Source of the DNA: Candidatus Aenigmatarchaeota archaeon
GTDB taxonomy: Archaea; Aenigmatarchaeota; Aenigmatarchaeia; GW2011-AR5
Reading direction: 5' to 3'
NCBI GenBank assembly: GCA_016187335.1
Contig: JACPJW010000001.1
Span: 853,978-917,977, forward strand
Length of the DNA: 64,000 nucleotides
Translations under genes and position numbers: made by a program
The notes under the pieces: generated by a model
The model's database searches: none
Told to the model about the DNA's origin: nothing
What the model saw: the letters and a program-made list of their open reading frames with translations, nothing else
Shown here: positions 35,260 to 57,195 of the stretch, in pieces
Layout: the number at the start of each line of letters is the position of its first letter
How positions within the stretch are numbered: position 1 is the stretch's first letter

Positions 35260-35260
35260 A

Positions 35261-35758: not shown

Positions 35759-35882
35759 AACGAAGAATTTCTCTTTCATCTAATTCTATTTTAATTGCAG
35801 AACAAAATGGAAGTTCAAATAGCTCGGTAAGTTGCCAGAACCAAGCATTACCATCAACTTTATTATGCCGATATTCACATAA

Positions 35883-37193: not shown

Positions 37194-37370
37194 AACTTTT
37201 TCCAGAAATTCCTCAGAATCTGAGCTTGTTCACGACGCCGTCCAGTGCCTTGGCAAATTTCTTGTGCAAAATAATTTCAGAAACCTCGTTGGCGAAGTCG
37301 CCGAATCTGTGCTTTCTGACCTTGTTTTTCACGAATCCTATTGGCATGAAAGTGATTTCTTCCGTAGCGT

Positions 37371-37805
37371 TCACCCCGCGCCGCTGATTTTCTTTCGGGG
37401 CATCAGGTAGAGTGAAACAAGCCTGTCAGCAAGCTTGTCCTCGTATTTCATCAGGTCTGTTGCAGTTACCATGCCTATGCACCTGTTGTCCTTGCATACT
37501 GGCAGCCGCTTGATGTTGTGCTTCAGCATAAGTCTTGCAGCTTCTTCCAGCGTCGTTTCCGGCGTTATCGTGATGACTTTTTTTGTCATTATGTTTTTTA
37601 TCAGCGTGTCCGGGCTTTTCCCTGCTGCAAACGCCTTTAAAATATCCCGCTCCGTGATGATGCCGCTCAGCTCAAAGCTGTCAACAACAATCAGGGAGCC
37701 GATGCCGTACTTGCTCATGACCTCGGCGGCAAACCTTATTGTTTCGCCTGGCTCGATTATTTTCAGCTTCGTGCTCATGATTTCCTTGACTTTCATCGGT
37801 TTCAA
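37371..37805 (-). CDS. CBS domain pair protein
   Basis: Two CBS motifs (VKEIMSTKLKIIEPGETIRFAAEVMSKYGIGSLIVV and IMTKKVITITPETTLEEAARLMLKHNIKRLPV). Confidence 0.75.
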   Translation of the reverse strand: MKPMKVKEIMSTKLKIIEPGETIRFAAEVMSKYGIGSLIVVDSFELSGIITERDILKAFAAGKSPDTLIKNIMTKKVITITPETTLEEAARLMLKHNIKRLPVCKDNRCIGMVTATDLMKYEDKLADRLVSLYLMPRKKISGAG

Positions 37806-37908
37806 TTCCTCCGCTGATGACTTAACATTATAGTTCCTTGCTTATAAATAGCTAGATGAAACTAGTTTCACCTTATCCGATATATGGTGTTTCATTTATT
37901 CTAAATGC

Positions 37909-38643
37909 ATGAACGAAAAGGAAAACGGCAACAAAGAAAAGCGCGGGGAAGTCGTAAACCTGAGCATCCCGCTGGAAACAATAACCATCGTCCTGGCAGT
38001 TGCCCTGGTCATCGTGGTTGTCTACAACCAGCTGGCAATCAACGAGCTCGGCTACCTTGCGGCTGCGGTCGGCGCGTCGCCGGAAAACCAGAACGCCGCT
38101 CAAAGCGCTGTATTAAGCAGCATTGACGTGACTCCGAAAGGCGTTCCGGCGGTGTACGGAGCGGAACTCGGAATAAGCTACGATGACGTGAGCGCAGGCA
38201 ATCCCCAGAAAGCCGATGCAACGATACAAAAATTAGCGGCATATGACACAAGCATAGAGCTTGATGCGCAGCAGCTTGAGCGGTACGTGAAAATTGCAGG
38301 CCAGATATCCTGCGAGTACTGCTGCGGGGCCGACTCAATTATCTTCACGAAGGATTCAGGACAGTACAAGAAGGGCGACGCGGCATGCGGCTGCGCGCAC
38401 AGCTACGCGATGAGGGGCTTGGCGAAATACCTGATAACGCAGCACGGTGACGAATTCACGGACGACCAGATACTCGAGGAACTGGGCAAGTGGAAGACGC
38501 TGTTCTTCCCTGACATCCTGGCACAGAAAGCTGCAGTGCTCCAGGATAAAGGAATAGAGCTTAACTACGTGAACCTTGCCTCCAACAAGTACAGGAACAT
38601 AGAAGCGGGAACTGACGGAGGCGGAATGGTAGGAGGTTGCTGA
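37909..38643 (+). CDS. secreted/membrane-anchored Cys-motif protein (PCYCGC-like motifs) ending in GGGMVGGC
   Basis: N-terminal TM, SCEYCCGADS and ACGCAHS motifs, and a C-terminus GTDGGGMVGGC*. First gene of a co-directional cluster. Confidence 0.45.
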   Translation: MNEKENGNKEKRGEVVNLSIPLETITIVLAVALVIVVVYNQLAINELGYLAAAVGASPENQNAAQSAVLSSIDVTPKGVPAVYGAELGISYDDVSAGNPQKADATIQKLAAYDTSIELDAQQLERYVKIAGQISCEYCCGADSIIFTKDSGQYKKGDAACGCAHSYAMRGLAKYLITQHGDEFTDDQILEELGKWKTLFFPDILAQKAAVLQDKGIELNYVNLASNKYRNIEAGTDGGGMVGGC

Positions 38644-38647
38644 ATTT

Positions 38648-38671
38648 GAAACTTTGCTTCTCCAAAGTTTC
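38648..38671. repeat. B-type hairpin (GAAACTTT-N8-AAAGTTTC) in the intergenic spacer between 38643 and 38697
   Basis: Perfect 8-bp inverted repeat, a member of the AACTTTT/AAAAGTT hairpin family seen elsewhere in the window. Confidence 0.55.
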
Positions 38672-38696
38672 ATCAAAAGAGACTAGTGGTGAATAA

Positions 38697-38888
38697 ATGA
38701 ACGTAAATATCTTGTTTGCAGTATTCATGGCTGTCCTGCTTGTGCTGTCCGTGTTCCAGACGATGCAGATAACAAGCATAAAGAGCGAGCTGAAAACAAA
38801 AATATCTGCCTCGCCGTCTGCCGCATCAAGCAGTCAAAGCCAGGGAAGCACGGGCTCCAGCAGCTCCGGAATGGTCGGTGGGTGCTGA
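38697..38888 (+). CDS. small single-TM protein with Ser-rich tail ending in SGMVGGC
   Basis: 63 aa. Shares the C-terminal GMVGGC-stop with the upstream gene at both amino-acid and nucleotide level (ggaatggtNggNggNtgctga). Stop overlaps the next start (TGATG). Confidence 0.4.
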   Translation: MNVNILFAVFMAVLLVLSVFQTMQITSIKSELKTKISASPSAASSSQSQGSTGSSSSGMVGGC

Positions 38889-39400
38889 TGATAGCCTTCT
38901 TTGCTTTTTTTATTATTTTTTTGCTTTCGCTGGCGCAGAAATCTTTCGCCCACTGCCCGCTGTGCGTGGCTGCAACGGGCTCTGTGGTGGCTGCATCAAG
39001 GGTAATGGGAGTTGACGATGCCATAACCGGAACGTTCGCGGGAGCTTTCATAATATCGACAGCATTGTGGACGGACAAAATGCTTTCAAAAAGAAAAGTC
39101 CATCTGCCTTTGCAGCCATACCTGCTGTCGGCGCTATTCATTACAATGACATTCGCAGGGTTTTACCTTTTCGGATTCGTCGGGACCGAGCCGGGATTCC
39201 TTAGCATAATGGGGATCGAGAGGCTCTCTTTTGGCATCATTGCCGGAAGCTTAATAGTCCTGATTTCGTATGAAGCTCACAACTTTTTGAGAAAATCGAA
39301 CAGCGGCAGGAATCACATACCTTTCCAGGGAATTCTTGTGCCGATAATTGCTCTGGTCATTTTTGACGTGCTGATGTACGTAGCAGGTGTGTTCGGATGA
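38888..39400 (+). CDS. integral membrane protein with HCPLC motif
   Basis: 4-5 TM segments and a CPLC pair at the start of the first TM (AHCPLCVAATG). Candidate thiol/metal-handling membrane protein. Confidence 0.45.
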   Translation: MIAFFAFFIIFLLSLAQKSFAHCPLCVAATGSVVAASRVMGVDDAITGTFAGAFIISTALWTDKMLSKRKVHLPLQPYLLSALFITMTFAGFYLFGFVGTEPGFLSIMGIERLSFGIIAGSLIVLISYEAHNFLRKSNSGRNHIPFQGILVPIIALVIFDVLMYVAGVFG

Positions 39401-39822
39401 AGCCGCAGAAAAATAATAAGGGAAATGAGGTTAGAAGGAGAAAAACCGTAGGTTTTTCCTCCTCTAAAGGCGATGTAACGAAGGCGCAGGACCTCGCGCT
39501 CGCAGTCACGAACCTGATAAGCCTTGAGGAGCACCTTGCCTTCACGGCAATGAAGACAGGAAACAGCGACTTTCACGAGATGGCTAAAGCAGTGAGAAAG
39601 ATAAGAATCATGTGCCTGCGCAACCTGATAGGCGAGCCTGCGGGCGAGTTATGGTGCTCGTCAAAGCACGCGCTGTCGGCCATGATGCGTTTGTTTGAGG
39701 TCGCGAGCAAGGAAGAAGGCAAAAAATGCGAGGAATACATGAAAGCTGCGTTCGATCTGTACCAGCTGTTCTGGCTTTTCAAGGAGATAGGAAATGATGG
39801 AACTAAAACTAAAAAGGCTTAA
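39397..39822 (+). CDS. hypothetical protein
   Basis: 141 aa soluble ORF with conserved Cys (CLRNL, WCSS, KKCEEY). No recognisable family. Confidence 0.35.
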   Translation: MKPQKNNKGNEVRRRKTVGFSSSKGDVTKAQDLALAVTNLISLEEHLAFTAMKTGNSDFHEMAKAVRKIRIMCLRNLIGEPAGELWCSSKHALSAMMRLFEVASKEEGKKCEEYMKAAFDLYQLFWLFKEIGNDGTKTKKA

Positions 39823-39858
39823 AGCAAAATTAAGCAAAGCGGTAAAAAACGCGCTGCA

Positions 39859-40290
39859 GTGCTGCTACGAGGAGTGAACAAACTTTTCAAAATGGTGATA
39901 AAATTCATGAAGAAGATATACCTTGCACTTGCTGTATTTCTGGTCGCCGCGCTTGTCGCAGGAGTTGTCATAGCATTTCCCAATAAAAATGCGGTTCCGG
40001 CGTATGCAACAAGGCATCCCCTGATAAAGGAAGCCTACATGTTTTCAGTGGACAGCCCCGAAGCACTTGACGGCGTGAACTGCTACTGCGGCTGCATGCA
40101 CCACCCTCATGACGGGCGCATTCATGCCCGCGGGCTGCTTGACTGCTTCAGGACAGCAGACGGCGGCTTTGACCGGCACGCGAGTGAGTGCGACATGTGC
40201 ATCAAGGATGCACTAGAGGTCAAGCAGATGACCCAGCAGGGAAAATCACGCGATGAAATAAGAAGCTACATAGACGGAAAATACGCCTGA
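39859..40290 (+). CDS. PCYCGC-motif domain protein (membrane-anchored)
   Basis: Signal anchor, then VNCYCGCMHHPHDG...CDMC. The CYCGC motif defines the PCYCGC family of unknown function. Confidence 0.5.
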   Translation: MLLRGVNKLFKMVIKFMKKIYLALAVFLVAALVAGVVIAFPNKNAVPAYATRHPLIKEAYMFSVDSPEALDGVNCYCGCMHHPHDGRIHARGLLDCFRTADGGFDRHASECDMCIKDALEVKQMTQQGKSRDEIRSYIDGKYA

Positions 40291-40292
40291 AA

Positions 40293-40360
40293 GAAACTTT
40301 TCCAAAAAGTTTCATCATTTGCGAAGAAACAAAGTTTCTTCGAAATCCCGAAGAACTTCG
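40293..40360. repeat. three consecutive hairpins immediately after the 40290 stop
   Basis: gaaactttt-cca-aaaagtttc (40293-40313), cgaagaaac-aaa-gtttcttcg (40322-40342), and cgaag-aa-cttcg (40349-40360). Confidence 0.55.
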
Positions 40361-40440
40361 CTCTTCGAGGAAAATGGTAGACCTTCTTAGAGGTCTTCAA
40401 TCAAAAATAAGAATCCAAGGTTTGCTTTCCATCTTGATAG

Positions 40441-40908
40441 ATGATTGTTATGAAAAAAACGGGGAAAAAGAACGGCAAAAGTATCTTTGGTTGGCTGGGT
40501 TCAGCTTCAGGAAGCGGCGCGATAGCGGGCGCCCACAACGTATGCCATGCCCTGTGCCAGGGCTTGGTTCTTTTCTTGGCGCTGTTCGGGATAGCCGTCT
40601 CGTCAACCGCCCTCATGTTTCTGGAGGACTACGCGGTGTATTTCTGGTCAATGGGACTGTTTTTCCTTTTAATCTCGGCGTATTTTTTTGCTGTCAGGAA
40701 ACAGGGCTCGCAAAAGCTGCTGCTCGCGAACTCGGGAATACTTTTGGCAGGAATACCTTTCAGGCAGTTCGAGGCATTTTCGGCGGCTTTTCTTGCCGCG
40801 GGCGGGGCGATGATAGCTTTCAGTGTTTTCCTTTATTTGAACGAAAGAAATTTTCTTGTATTTGGAAATAGGAACAATGGAGGGCGTAAGAATGGCAAAA
40901 GTGGCTAA
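40441..40908 (+). CDS. integral membrane protein with CxxxC motif
   Basis: 155 aa with 4 TM segments. NVCHALCQG lies at the first TM. Confidence 0.45.
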   Translation: MIVMKKTGKKNGKSIFGWLGSASGSGAIAGAHNVCHALCQGLVLFLALFGIAVSSTALMFLEDYAVYFWSMGLFFLLISAYFFAVRKQGSQKLLLANSGILLAGIPFRQFEAFSAAFLAAGGAMIAFSVFLYLNERNFLVFGNRNNGGRKNGKSG

Positions 40909-41134
40909 GGAAAAAATATTCACGTATGTATTGGCAGGAGCGATAGCAGTGCTCGTCGCAGTTCTTTTATGGTCGCTGCTCCAGCCGGCGCCTGATTACT
41001 ACGGCGCCAGCTATGAGCGCGCGAAGCAGAGCAAGCTGTCAGACAAATGCGCGACGCCGTCTGGCTACACCGATGCGCAGTGGCGCGAGCATATGGGCCA
41101 CCACCCGGACCAGTACGCGGAATGCTTTAAGTAA
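40877..41134 (+). CDS. small TM-anchored protein with C-terminal Cys/His motif
   Basis: Start uncertain (40856/40877/40892). C-terminus CATPSGYTDAQWREHMGHHPDQYAEC. Confidence 0.35.
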   Translation: MEGVRMAKVAKEKIFTYVLAGAIAVLVAVLLWSLLQPAPDYYGASYERAKQSKLSDKCATPSGYTDAQWREHMGHHPDQYAECFK

Positions 41135-41169
41135 ATTTTTGAATAATTTGAACTGCGGAAAGGATAGGA

Positions 41170-41787
41170 ATGAAAATGAAAAAAGCCGCATATATTGCCG
41201 CAGGGCTTATTCTTGTTGCTATAATCTACCTTGCATTCTTCACCAAGCCTTCCTATGAGCCGGGAGAGATGGAAGAGCACATCAGGGGAAACCACAACGC
41301 TCCCATTGTCATCGTGGAGTTCAGCGACTTCCAGTGCCCTTACTGCAGGGCCGTGCAGCCGGCGCTCAACCAGCTGCTAACGGAATACCCCGATGATGTC
41401 AAGCTGATTTACCGGCATTTCCCGCTGCCTTCGCACCAGTACGCCATGAAAGCCGCGGAAGCCTCGGAATGCGCAGCCAACCAGGGAAAGTTCTGGGAAT
41501 ATCACGACATGCTTTTCCAGAATCAGGAGCGGCTTGACGTAAATTCGCTGAAAAGTTACGCAAAGCAACTTGGATTAAACACGACCTCTTTCAATGCGTG
41601 CCTTGACAGCGGAGCAATGCAGCAACGCATAGAAATAATCGTAAAGAACGGCGCGGAGAAAGGCGTTACAGGGACGCCGACATTCCTGATAAACGACAAA
41701 ATGCTGTCAGGCAACCAGCCCTACAGCGTGTTCAAAACATCTGTGGACGAAGAGCTGAAAAAATTAAATGAAACCCGGCGAGTCTAA
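41170..41787 (+). CDS. DsbA-like thiol:disulfide oxidoreductase (thioredoxin fold), membrane-anchored
   Basis: Signal anchor plus a CPYC active site in FSDFQCPYCRAV, and a DsbA-type second domain. Confidence 0.7.
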   Translation: MKMKKAAYIAAGLILVAIIYLAFFTKPSYEPGEMEEHIRGNHNAPIVIVEFSDFQCPYCRAVQPALNQLLTEYPDDVKLIYRHFPLPSHQYAMKAAEASECAANQGKFWEYHDMLFQNQERLDVNSLKSYAKQLGLNTTSFNACLDSGAMQQRIEIIVKNGAEKGVTGTPTFLINDKMLSGNQPYSVFKTSVDEELKKLNETRRV

Positions 41788-42128
41788 TGATTTGCATCGC
41801 GGCTTTGATAGTCCTCGGCATTCTCGGCATTTTTTCCGCATATCATCGGAAGCTCGCCAGAGAAGCCTTTGACTGCGTGCTGAACAGGATAAAGCTGCGC
41901 GAGTGCGAGGCGGGCTTTGACCGCAGGATGAAGATGGCTGTTTTCAATAAGCTTTCATGGTCGCCGCGCCTTGCACGGCTCTGGTATGACCACTTTGAGC
42001 TTGTTTCGTGGGCTTTCGTGATTTTGTTTTTTGCAAGCCTGTATTTCGCGGCTGCCGGAATCTACAACCTTATAACATACGGGACATGCGACCCCGCGAC
42101 GGGGCAGTGCATTTTGAAATTGAAATAG
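41787..42128 (+). CDS. small membrane protein with conserved Cys pairs
   Basis: 113 aa with two TM segments. CVLNRIKLRECEAG and a C-terminal GTCDPATGQC. Start overlaps the dsbA-like stop. Confidence 0.4.
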   Translation: MICIAALIVLGILGIFSAYHRKLAREAFDCVLNRIKLRECEAGFDRRMKMAVFNKLSWSPRLARLWYDHFELVSWAFVILFFASLYFAAAGIYNLITYGTCDPATGQCILKLK

Positions 42129-42130
42129 AA

Positions 42131-43306
42131 TCAGTACCTTCTTCTGCCGAAGCGCCTGTGAAATCCCCTTTCCTGATACCTTCTTTTCACGAAAACCTTC
42201 GGATAGTCCCTTTCGACAATTTTTTCTATGTCAGAAATGAAACGCATTATGCGCCTGAAAGATTCGTGGTCCTTTTTTGACAGGAGGGTTATTGCCTTGC
42301 CCTCTCTGCCTATGCGCGCTGTCCTGCCTATCCGGTGCGTGTAGCCGTCGGCATCGTTTGGGACATCGTAATTGAAGATGTGCGTGACGTTTCGTATGTC
42401 CAGGCCGCGCGCCGCGACATCCGTGGCAACAAGTATATGCGGCCTGCCCCGGTGGAATCCCTCCATGACATGCATTCTCTGCTGCTGGGTCATGTCGCCG
42501 TGTATCGCTTTCGCCTCAGCGCCGTTCTGTTCCAGCGCGTCGGCGACAAAATCCGTTTCCCTTTTCGTGTTACAGAAAATTATTGCCAGAGAAGGCTTTT
42601 CCTTCTTTATCAGGTGCAGCAGGAGCGATATCTTGTCATCTTCGCGCACGTCATAATAAAACTGCTTCAGCTTGTGCTTCGGCACGCGCAGGGCGACTGA
42701 AATCCTGACAGGCTCGTGCATGTAATTCCTTGCTATTCGCATAACATCGTCGGATATCGTCGCCGAGAACAGCATGGTCTGCCTTTTCCGGGGCAGGGCG
42801 CTGATGATGCGCCGTATGTCGTCGATGAATCCCATGTCAAGCATGCGGTCCGCTTCGTCCAGGACAAGTATTTTTAGCGACGAGAAATTCACGGTTCTTC
42901 TGCTCATGTGATCCAATATTCTGCCGGGCGTTCCGACAACTATTTCGGATGACCGCAGCGCGTTTATCTGCGGCTCTATGCCCACGCCGCCGTAAACCTT
43001 CGCGACGTTCAGCTGCATGTATTTCGAGAATTTTCTCATCTCGTTGGCAACCTGCTCGGCCAGTTCCCTTGTCGGCACAAGGACAAGCGCCTGCACGCCG
43101 CGCCGCGCCTCAATGGAATGAAGCATCGGGACGCCGAAAGCAGCTGTTTTGCCGGACCCCGTCATTGACTGTGCCACGACGTCATTGCCGCGCATCGCTA
43201 TGGGTATAACTTTTTCCTGTATTTCCGTCGTCTTGACGAAGCGCATATCCTTGAGCGCTGACAGAACTCTTTTGTCAATATTCAGCTTTTCAAACATGAT
43301 AATCAA
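42131..43306 (-). CDS. deaD: DEAD-box ATP-dependent RNA helicase
   Basis: Q motif (FVKTTEIQ), motif I AQSMTGSGKT, PTRELA, DEAD (VLDEADRMLD), SAT, and HRIGRTAR. Confidence 0.85.
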   Translation of the reverse strand: MIIMFEKLNIDKRVLSALKDMRFVKTTEIQEKVIPIAMRGNDVVAQSMTGSGKTAAFGVPMLHSIEARRGVQALVLVPTRELAEQVANEMRKFSKYMQLNVAKVYGGVGIEPQINALRSSEIVVGTPGRILDHMSRRTVNFSSLKILVLDEADRMLDMGFIDDIRRIISALPRKRQTMLFSATISDDVMRIARNYMHEPVRISVALRVPKHKLKQFYYDVREDDKISLLLHLIKKEKPSLAIIFCNTKRETDFVADALEQNGAEAKAIHGDMTQQQRMHVMEGFHRGRPHILVATDVAARGLDIRNVTHIFNYDVPNDADGYTHRIGRTARIGREGKAITLLSKKDHESFRRIMRFISDIEKIVERDYPKVFVKRRYQERGFHRRFGRRRY

Positions 43307-43327
43307 TTGGATGGTAGGTTTATATCT

Positions 43328-43589
43328 GCAGAAAGCATAGCTTTCTGAGATTTCAAAAAGCTTTGCTTTTTGTAAATTCTGTTAAGATGGGGAGGAAATC
43401 CCGTTTTTATTGCATGAAATGCAGTCAATAAGTTCATAATACTTCTGCATTCGCTCAAAAAGCGAAGCTTTTTGGCGTGTCAGAAAGCTCTGCTTTCTGA
43501 ACATATGCAACTCGAAGAAAGCGAAGCTTTCTTGAGTCTTCGGAAAGCTATGCTTTCCTGAAGAAAATACTACGGGCTTTAGCCCGTAG
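43328..43589. repeat. tandem array of 7 short palindromic hairpins (A-type: xRAAAGC-N3-GCTTTYx) in the deaD upstream/leader region
   Basis: cagaaagc-ata-gctttctg (43328-43346), caaaaagc-ttt-gctttttg (43353-43371), caaaaagc-gaa-gctttttg (43456-43474), cagaaagc-tct-gctttctg (43481-43499), aagaaagc-gaa-gctttctt (43515-43533), ggaaagc-tat-gctttcc (43542-43558), and ctacgggct-tt-agcccgtag (43570-43589). Base changes are compensatory between arms. Confidence 0.6.
43561..43589 (-). terminator. GC-rich hairpin followed (on the minus strand) by a U-tract: candidate terminator of the 43642-44643 gene
   Basis: Minus-strand reading gives ctacgggctaaagcccgtag tattttctt, 50 nt after the stop. Confidence 0.3.
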
Positions 43590-43641
43590 ATATTTATCCG
43601 CTGCTTTGAACGGAAAATCCACTTTTCGCCCCGTTTTGCTT

Positions 43642-44643
43642 TTACCCGAACGTGAACGCGAAAATCTTCAGCCCGTCCTCCGTGACGATTTTTATCTCCC
43701 TGGTGCCGTGGTTTCCTTTTACGAGATTGTACATATCGGGATGCGTTACGACGACAAAGCTCTTTCCGCCCTCGGTGACGACATCATCGCCCGCTTCTTC
43801 TTTCTTCAGGGGCTTGTCGTTGAGCAGTATTTCCGCTTTCGCTTTGCTGGAGTCCATCACGGCGTTGACTTCCGAGGCCGTGAATTTCAATGTGAGGTGA
43901 CCTTTCTTCTTTTCATGCTGCAGGAACTCGTCGTGCTGCGACCAGTCGCCGTCAAGGTAGATTGTGTCATTGCGGTGGTGCTTCGGGTCTGCGTAGGAAC
44001 CGCAGTCGCCGGGCATGCAGACGATGCCGTTGCCCAGCCCGGGATTGCGCAGCAGGCCGCAATACAGTTCGGGTGTTATTTTCAAAGCGGAAGGGCGGGG
44101 CTCGCTCCCAAGCTTGGCCGGAAGATCATCCTTGGTTTTTCTTTTTATTCCGAGCAGTTCGACAATCTTTCCCTCCGTTTCCCCGTAGGCGCCCTCGCCG
44201 GCGTGGTCGTAAACAATAACGCCTTTCCTGTCAACAAGAAGCTTTCTCGGCCACCATCTGTTTTTGTATCTGTACCATGTTTTGTATTCGCTGTCAACCG
44301 CTACGGGGTAAGCAATGTTATACTTTTTCACGGCGCTGCGCACATTTTCAGCGTCCTTCTCAAAATCAAACTCCGGCGTATGCACGCCGATTATCACCAA
44401 GCCTTTCTTTGAGTACTGCTGATGCCACTGCTTCAGGTATGGCAGCGTCCTCTGGCAGTTGACGCATGAATACGTCCAGAAATCTATCAGAACAACCTTG
44501 CCCTTTAGTTGGCTGATTTTCAGCGGCTTTGAATTGAGCCATGCCACAGCGTCTATTTCAGGCGCCTGTTTGCCCATCCATCCCTGTGAAAGCAGTCTTT
44601 CGAACATGATTAACACCGGAAGAAAAGCAGAGCGATCCGGCAA
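43642..44643 (-). CDS. thioredoxin-like (TlpA/ResA-type CxxC) oxidoreductase with a C-terminal beta-rich domain (DipZ C-terminal-like)
   Basis: FWTYSCVNCQRTLP is the redoxin active site. An extra domain of about 170 aa with conserved Cys (YCGLL, CMPGDCGSY) follows. Confidence 0.6.
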   Translation of the reverse strand: MPDRSAFLPVLIMFERLLSQGWMGKQAPEIDAVAWLNSKPLKISQLKGKVVLIDFWTYSCVNCQRTLPYLKQWHQQYSKKGLVIIGVHTPEFDFEKDAENVRSAVKKYNIAYPVAVDSEYKTWYRYKNRWWPRKLLVDRKGVIVYDHAGEGAYGETEGKIVELLGIKRKTKDDLPAKLGSEPRPSALKITPELYCGLLRNPGLGNGIVCMPGDCGSYADPKHHRNDTIYLDGDWSQHDEFLQHEKKKGHLTLKFTASEVNAVMDSSKAKAEILLNDKPLKKEEAGDDVVTEGGKSFVVVTHPDMYNLVKGNHGTREIKIVTEDGLKIFAFTFG

Positions 44644-44684
44644 AAGGTTCGTCTGCTCTTTGTTTGAAAAATTTAATCCTCCTC

Positions 44685-44843
44685 TTACTTTGCGTACTTG
44701 TCAGGGCTTTCCATGAACTTTTTCCTGCAATCCGGGCTGCAGAAGAAATAGCCAGCACCCTTGTAGCTCGCCCTCTCTCTGCCGGCGCTTATGTGCATCT
44801 TGCAGACAGGGTCTATCGGCATAATTCCATCCTTTCTGTTCAT
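44685..44843 (-). CDS. YHS-domain small metal-binding protein (52 aa, not in ORF track)
   Basis: Manual translation gives MNRKDGIMPIDPVCKMHISAGRERASYKGAGYFFCSPDCRKKFMESPDKYAK*. It fits the YHS consensus (DPVCGM...Y.G..YYFCS..C...F). Lies directly upstream of, and co-oriented with, the redoxin gene. Confidence 0.6.
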   Translation of the reverse strand: MNRKDGIMPIDPVCKMHISAGRERASYKGAGYFFCSPDCRKKFMESPDKYAK

Positions 44844-45036
44844 TAACTTTGTGATTAAGGGTTTAAATTCCTGAAAACAAGAAGAGGATGATTATAGGGA
44901 AATGGGGATAAGAAGAAAATCTGTAATATTTTTAATTAAGGAAATGAGGGTACAAGCAGTTTGATAAATTATATAAAATTTGAAATAGTTTGTCAAACTG
45001 CTTGAAGGGAGAGAAACCGCAAGTTTCCCTTTTGAT

Positions 45037-45057
45037 GAAACTTTTCGGAAAAGTTTC
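45037..45057. repeat. B-type hairpin gaaacttttc-g-gaaaagtttc abutting the 5' end of tRNA-Cys
   Basis: Perfect 10-bp inverted repeat whose arms are identical to the hairpin at 40293-40313. Confidence 0.55.
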
Positions 45058-45225
45058 GCTGGGTTGGCAGATCGGCTATCTGCAAAGACCGTCGGAAAAA
45101 CGGTTGCGGATAACGCAAACCGAAGATGTGCCCGCCTGCAGAAACCCTTTTGCACATGTAAACGTGCAAAAGCGTTTACGGAAAGCAGCGAGCGGGATAG
45201 GGGGGTTCGACTCCCTCACCCAGCT
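45058..45225 (+). tRNA. tRNA-Cys(GCA) with two introns (non-canonical intron near position 26/27 and canonical 37/38 intron)
   Basis: Acceptor GCTGGGT/ACCCAGC (7/7 bp) and D-arm GCAG-ATCGGCTAT-CTGC (45067-45083). Exon 2 CCCGC-CTGCAG (45131-45141) gives the anticodon loop C-T-GCA-G. Exon 3 from 45191 (A38, then GCGGG pairing CCCGC), variable loop ATAG, T-arm GGGGG-TTCGACT-CCCTC, discriminator T. Introns about 45084-45130 and 45142-45190. The 5' half resembles known archaeal tRNA-Cys (GCCAGGGTGGCAGA...GGCTAT). Confidence 0.6.
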
Positions 45226-45291
45226 TTATAGAAAATTAAAAGTGGGTGAATAGTTTTTTATATTTATCTTTCTTACTACTCTGAAATAACT

Positions 45292-46395
45292 ATGAGAAAT
45301 CTTAATCCTGACTTTGATATAAAAGGTTCGTCGCCGGCAATAAATGGGGTAAAATTGCTGATTGAAACGTATGCGCCATGGGATATTTCGGTCCTAATAA
45401 CAGGAGAGAAGGGAACCGGAAAAGAACTTGTTGCGCGCCAGATGCATAATAGGTCAGGACGAAAAGGCAATTTTGTTGCTCAGAATTGCGGCGGCGTACC
45501 AGAGGGTCTCGCGCCTACGCTTTTTTACGGCCATAGAAAAGGTGCATTTACAGATGCCAGGGATGACAAACCCGGGCTATTCTTGCTCGCTGAAAACGGC
45601 ACGTTGTTTCTTGACGAAGCCGAAGCCATGCCTCTGTCAATTCAACCGGTATTACTAAGGCCGCTTGATGGTTACGGCATCAGGCCGATAGGCAGCACTG
45701 CAGAAATTTATCCTAATTTTCGTGTTGTTGCAGCCACAAATCAAGAGCTTACACCAGACGGTTTCAGGAGCGACCTTCTTGACCGGCTTGATGGTTTCAG
45801 AATTCATATGCCGCCGCTGCGCGAGATACGAGAGGATATCCCAGAGATAGTAGAATTTTACTTGGAACAGATGAGGCGTAATTACGGTAGGAGAAAACAA
45901 TTTACAAGTGACGCGCTTTCCTTGTTGAAAAATCATGACTTTCCCGGAAACACGCGCCAGCTTATAAATGTTGTAAAATACGCTTATTTTGGCTCGAATA
46001 TGCACGATTTTATAGGAGCCGACCTGGTAGAACGGAGGCTATTTGGGAAAACAGCTGTAGAAGTTCCTGAAAAAGATGCGCCAGCTTATGAACCCGGAAG
46101 AGTTGTACCTGTTACCGGCAACGGTGAAGTCCGGGATAGAATTGCTGCCATACAAAATCCGCGCGAAAGAGAAATAGTTGAGGCGCTTTTAAGGCATGGC
46201 GGAAGAATGAGAGATGTCGCAGCAGAAATGCATATTACGTATCAAGGATTGTACGGAAGAATAAGAGCCTTAGGTTATCCAGGAACGGAAGAATTATATG
46301 TAAAGCATGAAATACCGAATTACAGGACTAGAACATCCAAGGCTCCTCCAGGTGTGCGGGTTGAAGTGCGGCAAAGAAGCAGCCATGTTATGTAG
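45292..46395 (+). CDS. sigma54-interaction-domain AAA+ transcriptional activator (PspF-like bEBP lacking a sensor domain) with a C-terminal Fis-type HTH
   Basis: Walker A GEKGTGKE, GAFTGA-like loop KGAFTDA, Walker B LFLDEAEAM, R-finger RVVAATNQ, and the FRSDLLDRL...PPLREIREDI block. C-terminal HTH IVEALLRHGGRMRDVAAEMHITYQGLYGRI. Confidence 0.75.
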   Translation: MRNLNPDFDIKGSSPAINGVKLLIETYAPWDISVLITGEKGTGKELVARQMHNRSGRKGNFVAQNCGGVPEGLAPTLFYGHRKGAFTDARDDKPGLFLLAENGTLFLDEAEAMPLSIQPVLLRPLDGYGIRPIGSTAEIYPNFRVVAATNQELTPDGFRSDLLDRLDGFRIHMPPLREIREDIPEIVEFYLEQMRRNYGRRKQFTSDALSLLKNHDFPGNTRQLINVVKYAYFGSNMHDFIGADLVERRLFGKTAVEVPEKDAPAYEPGRVVPVTGNGEVRDRIAAIQNPREREIVEALLRHGGRMRDVAAEMHITYQGLYGRIRALGYPGTEELYVKHEIPNYRTRTSKAPPGVRVEVRQRSSHVM

Positions 46396-46425
46396 GCTTC
46401 GCTGGTTCTAAATTCATGCGTCTTG

Positions 46426-47559
46426 TTATATACCGTGTTCTATGCCGTAAAGAATGGCTTCGGCCCTGCTGTGAACGCCTAATTTCTTGAAAAGAGTGCC
46501 AGCATGCGTTTCAACTGTTTTAACTTGTAATCCCATCCTTTTTGCGATCTGCCTATATGTATTTGCCTCGCCGCTGGCCAGAACGCGCAGCACTTCCTTT
46601 TCACGTCGTGTAAGAGGTTCAGGCGGGGAGTAATCATGTCCGGTGACTTGGTCCTGCCGGGATTCAAATCCATGAAAACTGCCGTTCCTTAAGAGTTCGC
46701 GGAACCTGGCGTAAACGATAAGTTGCGCTTTTTTTTCAAGACCCAGCTTTTCCATAATATGTGAAACATGTGCTTCAGCCGTCTTCACCGACATGCAAAG
46801 GCTGCCGGCAATCTCCTTGTTTCCGGTGCATACACCCTCCCCGATAAGCTTCAGGATTCTTTGCTCCATTGGGGCAAGTTTCAAAGTATTGTATTTAACG
46901 CCTTCGGGATGCCCGCGGAAATCTGCGTCTTCAGGCCTTCTGTAGACGTAGCCTATCCCGCCAACATTCATGATGTAGGGGGTTTCGGCGTCTCCGGTTT
47001 TCAAGTTAAGCGACCGGACCATTGAATCAACATCAATTTCATTCAAATGACCGTTTCCTGCTGCGTGGCTTAGTTCCTTGGGCGTCATGACAGTGCCGGA
47101 TGCCGCCAGCGCGTGCAGCAGCGACAGCTCCGGGCGCGACATTTCTCTGCGCCTGCCGCCAATCACCGCGTAATCCTCGGTCATCGTAATTTGCGAGTCT
47201 CTGTACACTATCCTTGGTTCTGCCATGTGCTTGAGCCTGTCCTGCTCAAACTTGATCCTTTCAACGTCAATCCGCATGCATACCCTCTCTCCATCTATCG
47301 GACTGATGTATCCTTGCGTCATAGCATCGTTCAAATAACTCCAAAATGTCCTGGCATCCATCCCCATATTCCTGCATTTAGCCCAAAGGGAATCTTCATA
47401 AAATATTCCGGTCTCCTGATTGGTGCTTTCAAGGGCTGCAAGAACAAGCTGCGCAAAACCGCTCATAGGGCGGTGATGCTGTTTGTTGTTTTGTCTCCTA
47501 TAGCTGAAATCATTTACTCCTGTCTGGTAAGTAATTTTTGCTCTTTTTCCTGAAGCCAT
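46426..47559 (-). CDS. transcriptional regulator with two LuxR/GerE-type HTH domains
   Basis: Two segments matching the LuxR-type HTH signature (MEQRILKLIGEGVCTGNKEIAGSLCMSVKTAEAHVSHIMEKLG and TRREKEVLRVLASGEANTYRQIAKRMGLQVKTVETHAGTLFKKLG). Confidence 0.6.
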   Translation of the reverse strand: MASGKRAKITYQTGVNDFSYRRQNNKQHHRPMSGFAQLVLAALESTNQETGIFYEDSLWAKCRNMGMDARTFWSYLNDAMTQGYISPIDGERVCMRIDVERIKFEQDRLKHMAEPRIVYRDSQITMTEDYAVIGGRRREMSRPELSLLHALAASGTVMTPKELSHAAGNGHLNEIDVDSMVRSLNLKTGDAETPYIMNVGGIGYVYRRPEDADFRGHPEGVKYNTLKLAPMEQRILKLIGEGVCTGNKEIAGSLCMSVKTAEAHVSHIMEKLGLEKKAQLIVYARFRELLRNGSFHGFESRQDQVTGHDYSPPEPLTRREKEVLRVLASGEANTYRQIAKRMGLQVKTVETHAGTLFKKLGVHSRAEAILYGIEHGI

Positions 47560-47792
47560 ATTACATGTTAAAACACAATGTTTTTAAATCCATGGCGTCT
47601 GGGACGATTTCCCATGCGACCTAAGCCTGCGCTGTTGTACAATCCTGCCCAGCTCTTGGAACAAAATTGCTAATCTGTTAACCCTTTTAAGCGCGCGGAA
47701 ACAAATTATCAAAGACATCAAAGACGGAATGAATTAGCTGGAATTTAACTGCGCGGGCTTTCCTTTCCGTTTTGATATGGAGGTTGTGAAAA

Positions 47793-48377
47793 ATGGCAGA
47801 AAATGTCAAGGACCTGATAGAGGAAGCGAAAAACCTTTCCGAGCTGATGCTGGATTTGTCTTATTCCGCCGTGCTTTTTGAGAGCAAGGACATAGCAAAA
47901 GAGGTCATTATATCTTACGACAGGCTGAAGGAGCTGCAGGAGCGGCTTTACATGCACCTGTTTGCTGCGTCGCGCGGAAAATTCTCAAGAAAGTTCGTGA
48001 GCATCATAGACCTGATAGAGAACGCCGAAAGGGTGGCTGTTGCCGCAAAGAACATGTCTGAGCTTGTTCTGGAAGGCAGGGAAATGCATCCTGTGATAAA
48101 GTCAGCCCTGAAAGGAAGCGACGAGACGATGGTCCGCACGCAGGTCAGCGGCAATTCCGTTCTTGCAGGCCAGGTGATAGGCGACCTGAAGATAAGGACG
48201 CAGACAGGCGCGCAGATTATAGCGATAAGAAGGGACGAGGGAGGGCGCAGCAAGTGGGTGTTCAGCCCGAAGAAGGATACAGTTATTGTAGGGAATGATG
48301 TTATCATCGCCGTGGGCCCGAAGCAGGCGTGCGACAAGCTGCGTAAACTAGCCGAAGGGGTGCTGAAAAAGTTATGA
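47793..48377 (+). CDS. PhoU-like / TrkA-C (RCK_C) regulatory protein
   Basis: Helical N-terminal domain and a C-terminal RCK_C-like beta domain (VSGNSVLAGQVIGDLKIRTQTGAQIIAIRR...VGNDVIIAVG). Stop abuts the start of the downstream transporter. Confidence 0.6.
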   Translation: MAENVKDLIEEAKNLSELMLDLSYSAVLFESKDIAKEVIISYDRLKELQERLYMHLFAASRGKFSRKFVSIIDLIENAERVAVAAKNMSELVLEGREMHPVIKSALKGSDETMVRTQVSGNSVLAGQVIGDLKIRTQTGAQIIAIRRDEGGRSKWVFSPKKDTVIVGNDVIIAVGPKQACDKLRKLAEGVLKKL

Positions 48378-49727
48378 GTGAGAGCGATGAAAAGGACGCA
48401 CAAAGGAACTTTTCAGGAAAGTTCCACCAGAACGGAGAGGGCACAACCAGAACCCCTTTCAGGCGAGAAGACGATTTACGAATCAATCGCCTCAACGTTT
48501 TCTGATTTCTTCAGCCTTCTCGGGGGGAGCTCCGATGTCCTGAGGCAGAGCCTCACGGCAATAATGCTGAGCATTGCAACGGACGTGTTTGCAGGCGTGC
48601 TGCTTCACGGCGCCGAGGAGACGCTGGCGCTTCTGCCGGGGCTTATCGTTCTTGTTCCGGCGGCCATAGGAATGCGCGGAAACATATTCTCGTCCATGGG
48701 CTCGCGCCTGGGATCTGCCCTCCATCTGGGAGCTGTTGACAGGCTGTCCCTTGACGACAGGACCGTGAAGAACAATATTTACGCCCCATTGAGCCTCAGC
48801 ATCATTTTTTCTGTCCTTTCCGCTTTCATCGCGAAAGCCGTGCTCCTTCTGGCAGGGTTCCCGAGCATAAGTGTTTTTTCGCTTGTCCTGATCTCCTTCA
48901 TCGGCGGCATGATATCAAGCATCCTCCTGCTGATAATCACCTTCGGCATTTCCTTCCAGTCATACAGGCGCGGATGGGATCCGGACAACCTTACGTCGCC
49001 TATGCTGTCAGGACTTGGCGACCTGTTCACGATACCGGCATTGCTCATCGCGGCGGAATTCGTCATTGGCCTGGGCGGCAGGACCCAGATTGCCGAGGTT
49101 TTTGTGCTTTCAATTTTCATTCTCAGCGTCCTTTTCTTCTTCAAGGCCGGGATGTCCAGGGAAGCGGTAGCGGGCAGCTACAGGGGGATAGTTCTTCAGA
49201 GCGCTCCCGTCATCGCGGTGGGCCTTCTGCTCGATTCTTTCGCCGGCCTTTTCATCCACATAAAATTCGAGAACTTCGCGACCCTCGGGTTCCTGATTGT
49301 CATGCTTCCAGCTTTCCTGGAAGAGGGCGGGAACATAGGGACTATACTCGCCTCCCGGCTTGGGACGAAGCTGCATCTGGGCACTTTGGACCCCGAGCTT
49401 ACGATATCAAAGGAAATAAAGAAGGAATTCTTCAACTCTTACTTCCTTGCCATGGTTATATTCCCTGTAGTTGCCGTGGCTTCGTACTTCACGGCAAGGA
49501 TACTTTCGATACCTGTCTTGCCGCTTGCGCAGGCCGTGTACATCTCCGTATTCGCGGGGCTTGCGCTGACGACGCTGATCATCATACTCAGCTTCTCGAT
49601 TTCCGTCATTTCCTACAAGCACAACCTGGATCCTGACAACGTTACGATACCGCTGATAACGAGCACAGCCGACCTGGTGGGCGCGTTCTCGCTTCTCGCA
49701 ACCGCAAGCCTGTTCGGGATAATTTAA
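48378..49727 (+). CDS. MgtE/SLC41-family divalent cation transporter (duplicated MgtE TM domain)
   Basis: Two internal repeats, each with PGLIVLVPAAIGMRGNIFSSMGSRLGSALHLG-like and DPDN(L/V)T motifs, and 10 TM segments. Confidence 0.7.
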   Translation: MRAMKRTHKGTFQESSTRTERAQPEPLSGEKTIYESIASTFSDFFSLLGGSSDVLRQSLTAIMLSIATDVFAGVLLHGAEETLALLPGLIVLVPAAIGMRGNIFSSMGSRLGSALHLGAVDRLSLDDRTVKNNIYAPLSLSIIFSVLSAFIAKAVLLLAGFPSISVFSLVLISFIGGMISSILLLIITFGISFQSYRRGWDPDNLTSPMLSGLGDLFTIPALLIAAEFVIGLGGRTQIAEVFVLSIFILSVLFFFKAGMSREAVAGSYRGIVLQSAPVIAVGLLLDSFAGLFIHIKFENFATLGFLIVMLPAFLEEGGNIGTILASRLGTKLHLGTLDPELTISKEIKKEFFNSYFLAMVIFPVVAVASYFTARILSIPVLPLAQAVYISVFAGLALTTLIIILSFSISVISYKHNLDPDNVTIPLITSTADLVGAFSLLATASLFGII

Positions 49728-49747
49728 GAAATAATATGTTCTTTGCT

Positions 49748-49844
49748 CAGAAAGCAAAGCTTTCTGGCAACTCAAGAAGCTTATGCTTCTTCGAGTTTTC
49801 CGTAGACGATTTTCGTTTTGATGCAACTTTTCTGAAAAGTTGCA
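49748..49844. repeat. hairpin cluster between convergent transporter and mscL genes: two A-type and one B-type
   Basis: cagaaagc-aaa-gctttctg (49748-49766), aagaagc-ttat-gcttctt (49774-49791), and tgcaactttt-ctg-aaaagttgca (49822-49844). A T-rich tract (tctatttcttttcatcttt) follows. Confidence 0.55.
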
Positions 49845-53707: not shown

Positions 53708-54376
53708 TTAGCTAGTAAAACTGCGCCATCTAATTGTTCCTTTTTTTGTAACTTCCCATATGCCGCTTTCAGTTACACTTTCTACCTCAAAATCATATTT
53801 TTCTACAACTTCTCTAATTTGCGGGTCAAATTCTGGCGGAACGTAAATTGTTCCGCGATTTCGGTAATGACTAAGGTCGTTTGATCTCACCCCAATCCCC
53901 ATTTCTTTAAGTGTTCCGTTTATATGTCTCCAAAATTCTTCCTTCTCTCGGTTTCGGTAAGGTTTTGGTTTTAATTTATATCCTGAAAGAGGCTGTACCA
54001 GTTCGACGTTGGAAGGGCCTTCAAGTCTGTCTATTGTATCTTCTTTTGGATGTTTATTGATATCCGGGGCGTTGTAAAATGGTTCTACCATATCTACAAG
54101 AATAGGCGATCCGTATTGAATCCAAGGCGGAACAAGTACGTATCCTTTGCTTGGCGAATCTGATCTCGGAACCAAGTACAAATGACCTGGTGATGCTAGA
54201 TGAAATCTTTTAGATGAAGAAATTAAACCACCAATCTCTTCTTGATCAACTCTAGAAAGCCTGTTTCCAGATAATCTGTTGAGTTCATCATCAAGCTGAT
54301 CTCGAGAGGAGGCGAATTGATTATAAACCCTAACAACATCTTGAGAGGAAGGTATCATAGCCACACAACTTTTCAC
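53708..54376 (-). CDS. hypothetical protein inside cassette 2
   Basis: 222 aa ORF. No recognisable motif. Confidence 0.4.
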   Translation of the reverse strand: MKSCVAMIPSSQDVVRVYNQFASSRDQLDDELNRLSGNRLSRVDQEEIGGLISSSKRFHLASPGHLYLVPRSDSPSKGYVLVPPWIQYGSPILVDMVEPFYNAPDINKHPKEDTIDRLEGPSNVELVQPLSGYKLKPKPYRNREKEEFWRHINGTLKEMGIGVRSNDLSHYRNRGTIYVPPEFDPQIREVVEKYDFEVESVTESGIWEVTKKGTIRWRSFTS

Positions 54377-54429: not shown

Positions 54430-54450
54430 ATCCCGGCGGACGCATTATTT
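54430..54450. repeat. 21-nt direct repeat copy 2 (attR-like)
   Basis: atcccggcggacgcattattt. It provides the stop codon of the 54445-55653 gene. Confidence 0.7.
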
Positions 54451-55653
54451 TCTTCCGTGCCGTGCTTCGGCTTTTTCATACCAGGGCATTATAAGCGATG
54501 CCTCCACGGAGCTTCTTGCATAGACCTTCCTGGCGGAATCAAGATATTCCAAGGTTCCTAAATGAAATTTGCGTCGTGGCTTTCTGAGATGCCTGATAAC
54601 CGCCCCCCTGCTTGCGGGGAGATTATGCGTGGCTGCCGTCATTGCCGCCACAAATATTTCTCTTTCCCTCTCGTCCAGGCTCTCTATAGCTTTTCTCGCA
54701 TCGTCAATCAGCCCGTATCTTCCCAGATCAAACACCATGCGCCTCCAGTTGGCGTAGCTGAACAGCATAGCGGAGTTCGCATGGTCCTGCAGGCTTTTCA
54801 AATTTAGTGCAGACTCCGGTACCCTTTTCGCTTCGGGAAGGAACTGGTTCATGGCAGCCACATCTTCCATGGCATATTTTGTCATCTGGAAAGGGCTGAT
54901 GCTGACGAAAGGATCGGCCCTGGCAGGGTAGAACGTCAGGAATTGTATTCCAGCTTCCTTCAGAAGCCTGTCGAGATACCATGCCTTGAGCGCGGCGTTT
55001 ATCCATTCACGTCTTCCGTTCCTGAATGCTACGCGGGGGAGCATTTCAGTAATGTTATAGCCGATAATGACATCGGGGTTTGTGCTATTCACTACGGCGT
55101 CCATGAAGGGCCGTGCATTGTCGCCGTAAGTTCGCCTCCTGTCCTCGTGAAGCTCTTTAAGAAGTTCTATTGCCTTGGCAGCTTCGTTTTGCTTATACTG
55201 CTTCAATGAATAGCGGGCTCCTTTTCTTGTTTCTGCAACGGCCTTTTCCCTGAATCTTTGGAGAAGTTCTTTCTGCCTTTGGTAACCGGGCCTTGAAAAT
55301 TCGCGCCGTCTTAATTTTTCATCCCACATTGCCCTCATTGCGCGCTCGAAATCAATCTTTTCTCCGTGTCTTGACACTCCGAGGGGCAATGCAAAATCTC
55401 CATCGGTTTCAAGGCGTATAATGCGTTGATCAACGGCCTGCTGGAGTGTAAGAGGATAAAGCTCGCGCGCAACGCCCCATGCCGACGGCGCATCGAAAGT
55501 GTACACTTCATCAAACAGCCTGCCAGTCATCATGTTCTGGGGCTTTTTGTAAGATATTCTTTCCGCCGGCCTGCAACCGGAAAAATAGAAAGCTGCAGCA
55601 CTAGCTAATGCAAGATGTATAAGTTCTCTTCTAGTGGGATTTCCATAGACCAT
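54445..55653 (-). CDS. hypothetical lipoprotein-like protein
   Basis: N-terminal hydrophobic leader ending AAFYFSGC (lipobox-like Cys). 402 aa helical protein. No family recognised. Confidence 0.4.
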   Translation of the reverse strand: MVYGNPTRRELIHLALASAAAFYFSGCRPAERISYKKPQNMMTGRLFDEVYTFDAPSAWGVARELYPLTLQQAVDQRIIRLETDGDFALPLGVSRHGEKIDFERAMRAMWDEKLRRREFSRPGYQRQKELLQRFREKAVAETRKGARYSLKQYKQNEAAKAIELLKELHEDRRRTYGDNARPFMDAVVNSTNPDVIIGYNITEMLPRVAFRNGRREWINAALKAWYLDRLLKEAGIQFLTFYPARADPFVSISPFQMTKYAMEDVAAMNQFLPEAKRVPESALNLKSLQDHANSAMLFSYANWRRMVFDLGRYGLIDDARKAIESLDEREREIFVAAMTAATHNLPASRGAVIRHLRKPRRKFHLGTLEYLDSARKVYARSSVEASLIMPWYEKAEARHGRK

Positions 55654-55718
55654 AAAATACTTTCACAAGAAAGCTTTAAATTTTCACTACTTTGAAGTGA
55701 AACTTTGTTTTCTTCCCT

Positions 55719-57185: not shown

Positions 57186-57195
57186 TTCCGTTTTC

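Follow-up and report, generated by a model that had tools for sequence, protein, structure and literature searches.

A sensor-less AAA+ ATPase gene of the bacterial enhancer-binding protein type, with an intact GAFTGA-type loop, on an archaeal contig

The enhancer-binding proteins of bacteria (bEBPs) are seen as inseparably tied to sigma54, and the GAFTGA motif in their L1 loop is the element that contacts this sigma factor. Some of them, like PspF of Escherichia coli and HrpR/HrpS of Pseudomonas syringae, consist of an AAA+ domain, its lid and a Fis-type helix-turn-helix (HTH) and have no N-terminal regulatory domain. In surveys, archaea count as devoid of both bEBPs and sigma54. Sigma factors are absent from archaea, and 380 archaeal proteomes served as the negative control in a 2025 survey (PMC12316311); NtrC-type regulators were found in none of the complete archaeal genomes, and three proteins with a receiver-AAA-HTH architecture are listed from unfinished ones (PMC5847659). 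Here, we analyse a stretch of 64,000 nucleotides from a Candidatus Aenigmatarchaeota archaeon (GenBank assembly GCA_016187335.1, contig JACPJW010000001.1, positions 853,978 to 917,977 of the forward strand), hereafter the window, in which an earlier note based on the sequence alone had pointed to a bEBP-like gene beside an intron-bearing tRNA gene. On balance, we lean slightly towards reading this gene, called the activator below, as an intact archaeal gene: a divergent member of a sensor-less subfamily derived from bEBPs that would use its L1 loop on a client other than sigma54, in a copy that was relocated secondarily.

The window protein resembles PspF, HrpR and HrpS not only in its architecture but also in its intact L1 and catalytic motifs, including FR(A/S)DLLDRL. 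It differs from them in its host, an archaeon, where sigma factors are not known, and in the chain itself: the linker between sensor I and the arginine finger (R-finger) has 7 instead of 11 residues, an extra motif follows the HTH, and PTLFYGH replaces ESELFGH. DVU2106 and related bEBPs of Desulfovibrio and other Desulfobacterota have the same GAFTDA loop tip, followed by R.DKPG, but they feature PAS or other sensor domains and an 11-residue linker, occur in hosts with sigma54, and are at most 46-49% identical to the window protein in the core. The NtrC-family regulators from archaeal assemblies (two crenarchaea and a Thorarchaeota metagenome-assembled genome; PMC5847659) also possess a bEBP-type AAA+ domain; however, they contain a receiver domain and were listed as sporadic bacterial-type proteins, whereas the subfamily described here is sensor-less and comprises about ten members with common derived features. 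TyrR, the NtrC proteins of R. capsulatus and Caulobacter, NtrX and VpsR are AAA+/HTH proteins derived from bEBPs that regulate transcription without sigma54; in these, GAFTGA is lost or deleted, whereas the window protein and its subfamily keep the loop. Finally, the best PADLOC match of the window protein is RtcR, a CARF-AAA+-HTH protein, with 226 bits over AAA+ domain and HTH; unlike RtcR, the window protein has no CARF domain, the match spans profile positions 168-479 of 481, and no rtcBA genes lie nearby. A role of the activator in a defence system was considered and rejected, as the PADLOC models are CARF fusions of which no more than the generic AAA+ and HTH portions are matched.

The activator gene and its archaeal contig

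The activator is encoded by an intact open reading frame (ORF; Table 1). The Pfam model Sigma54_activat matches residues 11-171 with 152 bits, against a cutoff of 20.2, and AAA_lid_14 matches residues 177-255 with 54 bits, as expected of a PF00158-type bEBP, which should have an AAA+ domain above the curated cutoff together with an AAA lid. Only 10 residues precede the AAA+ domain, and a longer N-terminus is ruled out by an in-frame stop codon at 45247-45249; the window protein therefore has no sensor domain, and the PspF-like architecture proposed in the earlier note stands. All motifs of the sigma54-interaction module quoted there were recovered as well. Alignments with 106 and with 66 homologs reveal that the catalytic set is retained, namely the Walker A lysine, the DE of Walker B, sensor I, two arginine fingers and the sensor II arginine; the pre-sensor-I insertion is present, without a deletion in this region. 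Overall, 58 of the 65 near-invariant bEBP positions are kept, at a mean identity of ~41%.

The C-terminal Fis-type HTH claimed from the sequence remains below threshold in Pfam, where HTH_8 reaches 17.9 bits and the cutoff is 22, but it is supported by an AlphaFold2 (AF2) model, in which helices 290-301, 306-312 and 317-326 form a confident three-helix unit (residues 290-326) with a predicted local distance difference test score (pLDDT) of 84-93; other subfamily members do match HTH_8. The AF2 model, built from 67 sequences, has a mean pLDDT of 86 and exceeds 90 in the AAA+ domain and lid. Foldseek places its fold at a root-mean-square deviation of ~2 Å from the AAA+ domains of FlrC, NtrC1, FleQ, ZraR and PspF, and the closest PDB relatives by sequence are likewise all bEBPs (FlrA, FleQ, NtrC1, ZraR and PspF, with E values of 1e-47 to 1e-40). 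The data show a complete bEBP-type AAA+ engine with an intact L1 and the C-terminal motif of the subfamily, along with a probable Fis-like HTH. By each sequence and structure criterion tested, the window protein belongs to the bEBP family, save for the ESELFGH segment and for the sigma54 context, which was assessed in the window only.

Table 1. Positions of the activator gene, its motifs and the adjoining features in the window (position 1 is the first nucleotide of the window; residues refer to the activator protein)
Feature	Residues	Position	Strand	Remarks
tRNA-Cys(GCA) gene, two introns		45058..45225	+	exons 45058-45077, 45126-45141, 45191-45225
Intron 1 of tRNA-Cys		45078-45125	+	48 nt, in the D-loop; central helix TCGG/CCGA
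Intron 2 of tRNA-Cys		45142-45190	+	49 nt, canonical position 37/38; 4-bp central and 5-bp outer helix
TATA-like box TTTTATAT		45256..45263	+	spans -36 to -29 relative to the ATG; putative archaeal promoter for a nearly leaderless mRNA
Activator gene: sensor-less bEBP-like AAA+ ATPase-HTH		45292..46395	+	367 aa, intact ORF
N-terminus typical of the subfamily, MRNLNPDFDIKGSS		45292..45333	+	M(R/N)xLNxxYxIxGxS; common to P0296, P0302, P0310, P0326, P0332, P0341
Walker A, GEKGTGKE	38-45	45403..45426	+	G, T, G, K and E invariant in bEBPs and subfamily
Helix-3 segment ahead of L1, PTLFYGH		45514..45534	+	replaces near-invariant ESELFGH; homolog alignment
L1 loop tip, GAFTDA	84-89	45541..45558	+	contacts sigma54 in bacterial bEBPs; homolog alignment
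Walker B, LFLDE	105-109	45604..45618	+	homolog alignment
Sensor I AATN, 7-residue linker, R-finger motif FRSDLLDRL	147-150 (sensor I), 158-166 (R-finger motif)	45730..45789	+
PPLRE	174-178		+	motif present in the window protein
Sensor II, FPGNTRQL	217-224	45940..45963	+	arginine retained; E223Q deviates
Fis-like C-terminal HTH		46165..46272	+	HTH_8 sub-threshold; AF2 helices; PADLOC RtcR_PspF2 AAA_HTH model spans the HTH
Post-HTH subfamily motif GYPGTEELYVKHEI, then disordered tail		46273..46314	+	consensus G[YH]xxxxxF[CY]xxHGI
Convergent orphan regulator, two GerE/LuxR HTH units		46426..47559	-	weak Trans_reg_C-like middle region

That this gene is encoded in an archaeon, as initially claimed, is well supported. 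The window encodes Dph2, SRP54, FtsY, CysRS, eIF-6, the proteasome alpha subunit, SBDS and a CTP-dependent riboflavin kinase, along with TFS and the Rrp4/Rrp41/Rrp42 operon of the exosome. For SRP54 there are dozens of relatives at 65-83% identity, and all those that bear a name come from Aenigmarchaeota. MgtE, encoded in the flank, has only archaeal proteins as its nearest relatives, and a tRNA-Cys gene with two introns ends 66 nt ahead of the activator ATG. Bacterial misassembly had been named as one finding that would overturn the claim, but Logan assemblies of three runs (SRR12113385, SRR12113419 and SRR12113430) match the window at 100% identity over 43568-49839, and misassembly is therefore very unlikely. 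An artefact of assembly, or contaminating bacterial DNA fused with an archaeal contig, would be in line with the bacterial nature of the nearest homologs by score and with the somewhat atypical composition of the gene. However, both junctions are reproduced at 100% identity by these three independent assemblies, and the intron-bearing archaeal tRNA just upstream and the exclusively archaeal relatives of MgtE speak against it too, so that the chance of an artefact appears negligible.

The L1 loop and a sensor-less, short-linker subfamily

To call the GAFTDA tip nearly intact compared with GAFTGA, as the earlier note did, understates its condition. L1 variants among 119 retrieved homologs include GAFTGA (65), GAFTDA (33) and GSFTGA (15), and GAFTDA has been listed as activity-compatible in Desulfovibrio vulgaris, where the GAFTDA carrier DVU2106 has a sigma54 regulon (PMC4641369). 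GAFTDA is a common bacterial L1 variant and not a damaged GAFTGA, and residues 84-89 of the window protein qualify as a GAFTGA-type L1 with the conserved Phe and Thr. A check for degenerate loop or R-finger residues, which would have undermined the case, found the L1 tip intact and both arginine fingers retained. What had been overlooked lies just ahead of this intact loop. The ESELFGH segment carries 0 or 1 change in 113 of 120 sequences, and each of the 119 other homologs has two changes at most; PTLFYGH of the window protein departs from it at five of seven positions, so the bEBP-typical ESELFGH is missing here and the loop helix is altered in a way unique to this copy.

Relatives were collected by an exhaustive HMMER search over 1.84 billion representatives, using a profile of the window protein and P0010 (344 aa), a protein that is sensor-less like it and has several idiosyncrasies in common with it, followed by inspection. 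This revealed about ten short proteins of 325-399 aa, plus P0303 with 470 aa, whose hallmarks are the N-terminus M(R/N)xLNxxYxIxGxS and the post-HTH motif G[YH]x5F[CY]xxHGI. In all of them the linker from sensor I to the R-finger has 7-9 residues, compared with 11 in 243 of 247 other bEBPs, an indel that appears to be a synapomorphy of the subfamily. With pairwise identities of 32-53%, the subfamily must be both diverse and old. When each member in turn was left out of the profile and only the AAA+ core was scored, members reach +29 to +59 bits in favour of the subfamily profile, whereas ordinary bEBPs score -63 ± 13 bits (best -34). The window protein combines the N-terminus, a 7-residue linker, the post-HTH motif and a positive profile score; it is the most divergent member known. 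We found no account of this subfamily in the searchable literature, and on bEBPs of archaea or DPANN nothing specific apart from Galperin et al. 2018 (PMC5847659). In two members, P0283 and P0332 (contigs L033 and L029), the C-terminal HTH and the F..HGI motif are tandemly duplicated.

Within the subfamily, the L1 tip is kept as strictly as Walker A and B, the R-fingers and sensor II (G in 10/10, F in 9/10 and T in 10/10 sequences). Conservation this strict among proteins so diverse speaks for a loop that still has something to act on. We consider it unlikely that the proteins have instead become ordinary DNA-binding repressors or activators that no longer use L1, after the manner of TyrR, NtrX, VpsR and the NtrC proteins of R. 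capsulatus and Caulobacter, for which ATP binding or oligomerisation on DNA is enough. The retained HTH would suit such a role, and HTH proteins of bacterial type, acting close to the TATA box or the B recognition element, make up most of the regulators of archaea. There is also precedent for bEBP-like proteins acting without sigma54; however, in all known sigma54-independent derivatives the L1 loop with its GAFTGA motif has been lost or deleted (bioRxiv 10.1101/2023.06.06.543975), whereas the subfamily retains it as strictly as the Walker motifs.

The hosts of these proteins appear to be archaea: two members, that of the window and P0283 on contig L033, are firmly archaeal, and the others are probably so. 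L033 encodes a tRNA-Ala (G3-U70, anticodon GGC) with a 15-nt intron in the anticodon loop, and the anticodon-intron helix of this arm is flanked by a bulge and a loop; the intron-bearing tRNA marks L033 as archaeal. On the seven member contigs for which DNA was available, an A/T box peaks at about -30 from the ATG in 19 of 40 genes and a Shine-Dalgarno-like (SD-like) motif precedes only 1 of 40, the same leaderless pattern as in the window. Among neighbouring genes on member contigs, an ATPase on L029 has FlaI as its best NCBIfam model, an N-glycosylase/DNA lyase scores above the cutoff of the archaeal Ogg model, the three best NCBIfam models of a NAD kinase are of archaeal type, and the ribonucleotide reductase (RNR) best matches the Pyrococcus-type B12 enzyme. 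The opposite view, that the subfamily is really bacterial, belonging to candidate phyla radiation (CPR) or other uncultured groundwater bacteria with sigma54, and that the window and L033 genes are independent captures, seems very improbable to us. Most members do lie on short, unclassified metagenome contigs, the neighbour-joining (NJ) tree gives no clade, and PurA on contig L025 best matches a bacterial-type model. Against this stand the archaeal tRNA introns that anchor two members, the leaderless architecture with a TATA box at ~-30 and without SD motifs on all inspected contigs, and the models that fit the neighbours best, namely those for FlaI and for Ogg and NAD kinase of the archaeal kind; that the members have the indel and the motifs at both ends in common favours one origin for them all.

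Gene contexts vary among the members. P0302 and P0310 are found in the order adenosylcobalamin-dependent RNR, PduO-type cob(I)alamin adenosyltransferase, bEBP-like gene and small Acetyltransf_CG gene; the order RNR-PduO-bEBP-like is seen on L025/L026 and L027/L028, and the RNR of L026 contains an intein. This arrangement may point to a connection with the metabolism of nucleotides or of B12. Other members are found with pilus or archaellum genes, with a HAD hydrolase and a NAD kinase, or with suf genes. A MazE-PIN pair adjoins the RNR-PduO-bEBP-like cluster on L025 (2903-3555) and L026.

Possible clients and the origin of the gene

How could such a protein work in a cell presumably without sigma54? 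Lacking a built-in sensor, like PspF and HrpR/HrpS, it would probably be active when made unless restrained in trans, so that control would lie in its own expression or in a factor acting in trans. Bound to DNA through the HTH, it would form a ring that hydrolyses ATP, and its L1 and L2 loops would remodel a target, either a protein or a nucleoprotein complex. Because sigma factors are not known in archaea, the client should not be sigma54-RNA polymerase; most plausibly, it would be part of the complex that initiates transcription in archaea, or else a regulator attached to this complex. The engine would then operate like a PspF-type activator, while its output would have to differ. The earlier note had offered either very recent acquisition or recruitment of the ATPase to another partner; we infer that the second is the better option, which we favour because the L1 tip of the subfamily is conserved like the Walker motifs. 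A bolder version is that a DPANN lineage domesticated the bEBP ring, which its HTH would hold on DNA and whose GAFTGA-type loop would now remodel a component of the TBP/TFB/TFE-RNA polymerase machinery or an inhibitory protein resembling region I of sigma54. We regard this as a long shot; if true, Archaea would possess a form of transcription activation that is ATP-dependent and of the enhancer type.

The genes and sites that accompany bEBPs in bacteria were sought in the window. An RpoN-box peptide was not found in its six frames, and -24/-12 promoters are not enriched: TGGCAC-N5-TTGCW with up to two mismatches occurs 23 times where 36.9 are expected, with no perfect site. A PspA-like gene was not found among the ~58 window ORFs scanned with Pfam, nor was an hrpV-like partner found in the window.

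Several of our results weigh against an intact gene that uses L1 on a non-sigma54 client. We found neither a partner of the activator nor a promoter or site on which it would act, and rpoN is excluded for the 64-kb window only. The window protein fits the subfamily core marginally, its +7.7 bits being the weakest score of the members. The proposed AAA+ phylogeny did not resolve the matter: a crude NJ tree of the core recovers a subfamily clade in 7 of 100 bootstraps, which we take to reflect saturation but which remains a caveat, and the indel and profile tests were used in its place. Only two members are firmly anchored in archaea, the rest being placed by promoter architecture and best family models, and no neighbour is conserved family-wide except for the B12-dependent RNR and the PduO-type adenosyltransferase beside two members. 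The three assemblies are 100% identical and thus contain no polymorphism from which a signal of selection could be read. Finally, the window protein deviates at 7 of the 65 near-invariant bEBP positions, compared with 1.75 ± 1.8 (maximum 9) in the other homologs, which could reflect decay rather than specialisation.

Decay is also at the heart of another explanation, in which a bEBP gene, bacterial or archaeal-borne, landed at tRNA-Cys together with the orphan LuxR-type gene downstream and is now a functionless passenger that slowly decays. It would explain why this is the sole copy in a well-sampled lineage, why the GC content at third codon positions (GC3) is 0.39 where the flanks have 0.65, why 7 of the 65 near-invariant positions deviate, including five of the seven in ESELFGH, and why the subfamily profile fits so weakly; the LuxR-type neighbour is likewise an orphan, and the window has no sigma54 promoters. 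On the other hand, the ORF is intact, the catalytic residues and the L1 tip are all retained amid the 58 kept positions despite the low overall identity, the AF2 fold is confident, the TATA-like box lies at about the distance typical of the host, and the sequence is identical in three samples. In our estimation, a mere passenger is doubtful.

As for the origin of the gene, a homolog search that covered 5.8 billion proteins returned a best non-self match of 42% identity overall and 46-49% in the core, and the window protein is the second most divergent of its homolog set. Very recent acquisition by the window organism is disfavoured, because no match exceeds 42-49% identity and because the gene belongs to a diverse subfamily with pairwise identities of 32-53% and at least two archaeal-anchored members. 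Composition, a check that had been proposed along with the acquisition scenario, gives a mixed answer: the GC3 of 0.39 is below the 0.65-0.67 of the four flanking genes, yet with a window mean of 0.56 ± 0.13 it is atypical but not an outlier. Neither the activator nor the LuxR-type gene was found in relatives within the well-sampled clade of the host, and the pair is therefore lineage-specific. The GC3 dip, this lineage-specific presence and the unique helix-3 changes suggest that the window copy was probably moved to the locus secondarily, with another archaeon as its source and not, by a direct transfer, a bacterium. P0305, a further subfamily member, turns up in the sample series of the window organism (SRR12113385). 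A/T boxes of window genes are most frequent at -30 to -26 relative to the start codons, which fits leaderless mRNAs, and by its sequence and position TTTTATAT may serve as the promoter of the activator.

The significance of the gene hinges mostly on an archaeal origin of all subfamily members. If a loop-keeping subfamily resides in archaea, there must be a second client for the loop or an unsuspected sigma54-like partner; if the subfamily belongs to bacteria and archaea captured it only sporadically, what is left is a curiosity of horizontal gene transfer.

The tRNA-Cys locus and neighbouring genes

The tRNA-Cys gene upstream of the activator was missed by ARAGORN in its default mode and by Rfam, and the tRNA-Pro that the intron mode of ARAGORN forced onto the locus was rejected as implausible. 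Its exon/intron structure was therefore worked out by hand and then compared with the intron-less tRNA-Cys of an unrelated contig, L024, to which the spliced form is identical at 69 of 71 positions; after this comparison, a first splice model for intron 1 (26/27, A26) was dropped in favour of the D-loop model. Both introns are framed by a bulge-helix-bulge (BHB) motif with a perfect 4-bp central helix, and the spliced tRNA-Cys(GCA) carries U73. The features expected of an archaeal intron-containing tRNA, a cloverleaf after splicing, BHB introns, the GCA anticodon and U73, are thus all present, and the multi-intron tRNA beside the activator is real. Protein-spliced tRNA introns, above all at non-canonical positions, are an archaeal hallmark.

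Whether tRNA-Cys marks the edge of an island had been called unproven, and it remains so, as neither the repeat search nor the synteny scans gave a boundary. The cccagct echo of the tRNA end does exist, at 47648, but it is part of a 10-mer expected by chance, with a third copy at 46742, and no att-like repeat was found at tRNA-Cys. A scan of genome contigs with MgtE for synteny or an empty site gave only relatives of at most 36% identity from other archaeal orders, and a metagenome scan with the 3' half of the tRNA gave one intron-less tRNA-Cys, that of L024, with unrelated flanks.

A near-perfect palindrome with 26-nt arms (44953-45004; AT-rich centre, 20-bp single-strand hairpin, z = -7.8) occupies the divergent intergenic region between a small YHS gene and tRNA-Cys, and might act as an operator or as part of a promoter that works in both directions. 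An ORF of 87 aa at 44990-45253 (+) that overlaps tRNA-Cys and its introns is almost certainly spurious.

Downstream of the activator, the double-LuxR-HTH regulator described before is indeed found on the opposite strand. Homologs were found for its HTH units only, and a TATA-like box lies at 47581-47589. As a functional partner of the activator it was rejected, being an orphan that is not beside any other inspected subfamily member. A 16-nt inverted repeat (46516-46531 and 47560-47575; 15/16 complementary) brackets most of this gene, with one arm abutting its start codon; the repeat is marginally above chance.

On the opposite flank of the locus, a run of copper and redox genes (32013-44843) stops just upstream of tRNA-Cys and the activator. 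It comprises a YHS-domain P-type ATPase, a multicopper oxidase, a MarR/TrmB-type regulator, a PCYCGC protein, a DsbA-like protein, a Thioredoxin_10 redoxin and a YHS protein of 52 aa. Farther away, three ORFs of 1973, 488 and 402 aa at 54445-63117 (-) have no Pfam or PADLOC match and in this respect resemble the giant surface proteins known from DPANN archaea. Four genes with very low GC3 (0.18-0.28) and no Pfam match (4876-5973, 7275-7751, 14288-15127 and 53708-54376) may likewise be of foreign origin or else evolve fast. At 2069-2700 (+), a small ORF precedes a gene for a PIN-domain (VapC-like) toxin. The TFS/RPB9-type factor at 29803-30306 (+) has 167 aa, longer than the usual archaeal TFS, and features an extra N-terminal zinc-ribbon region.

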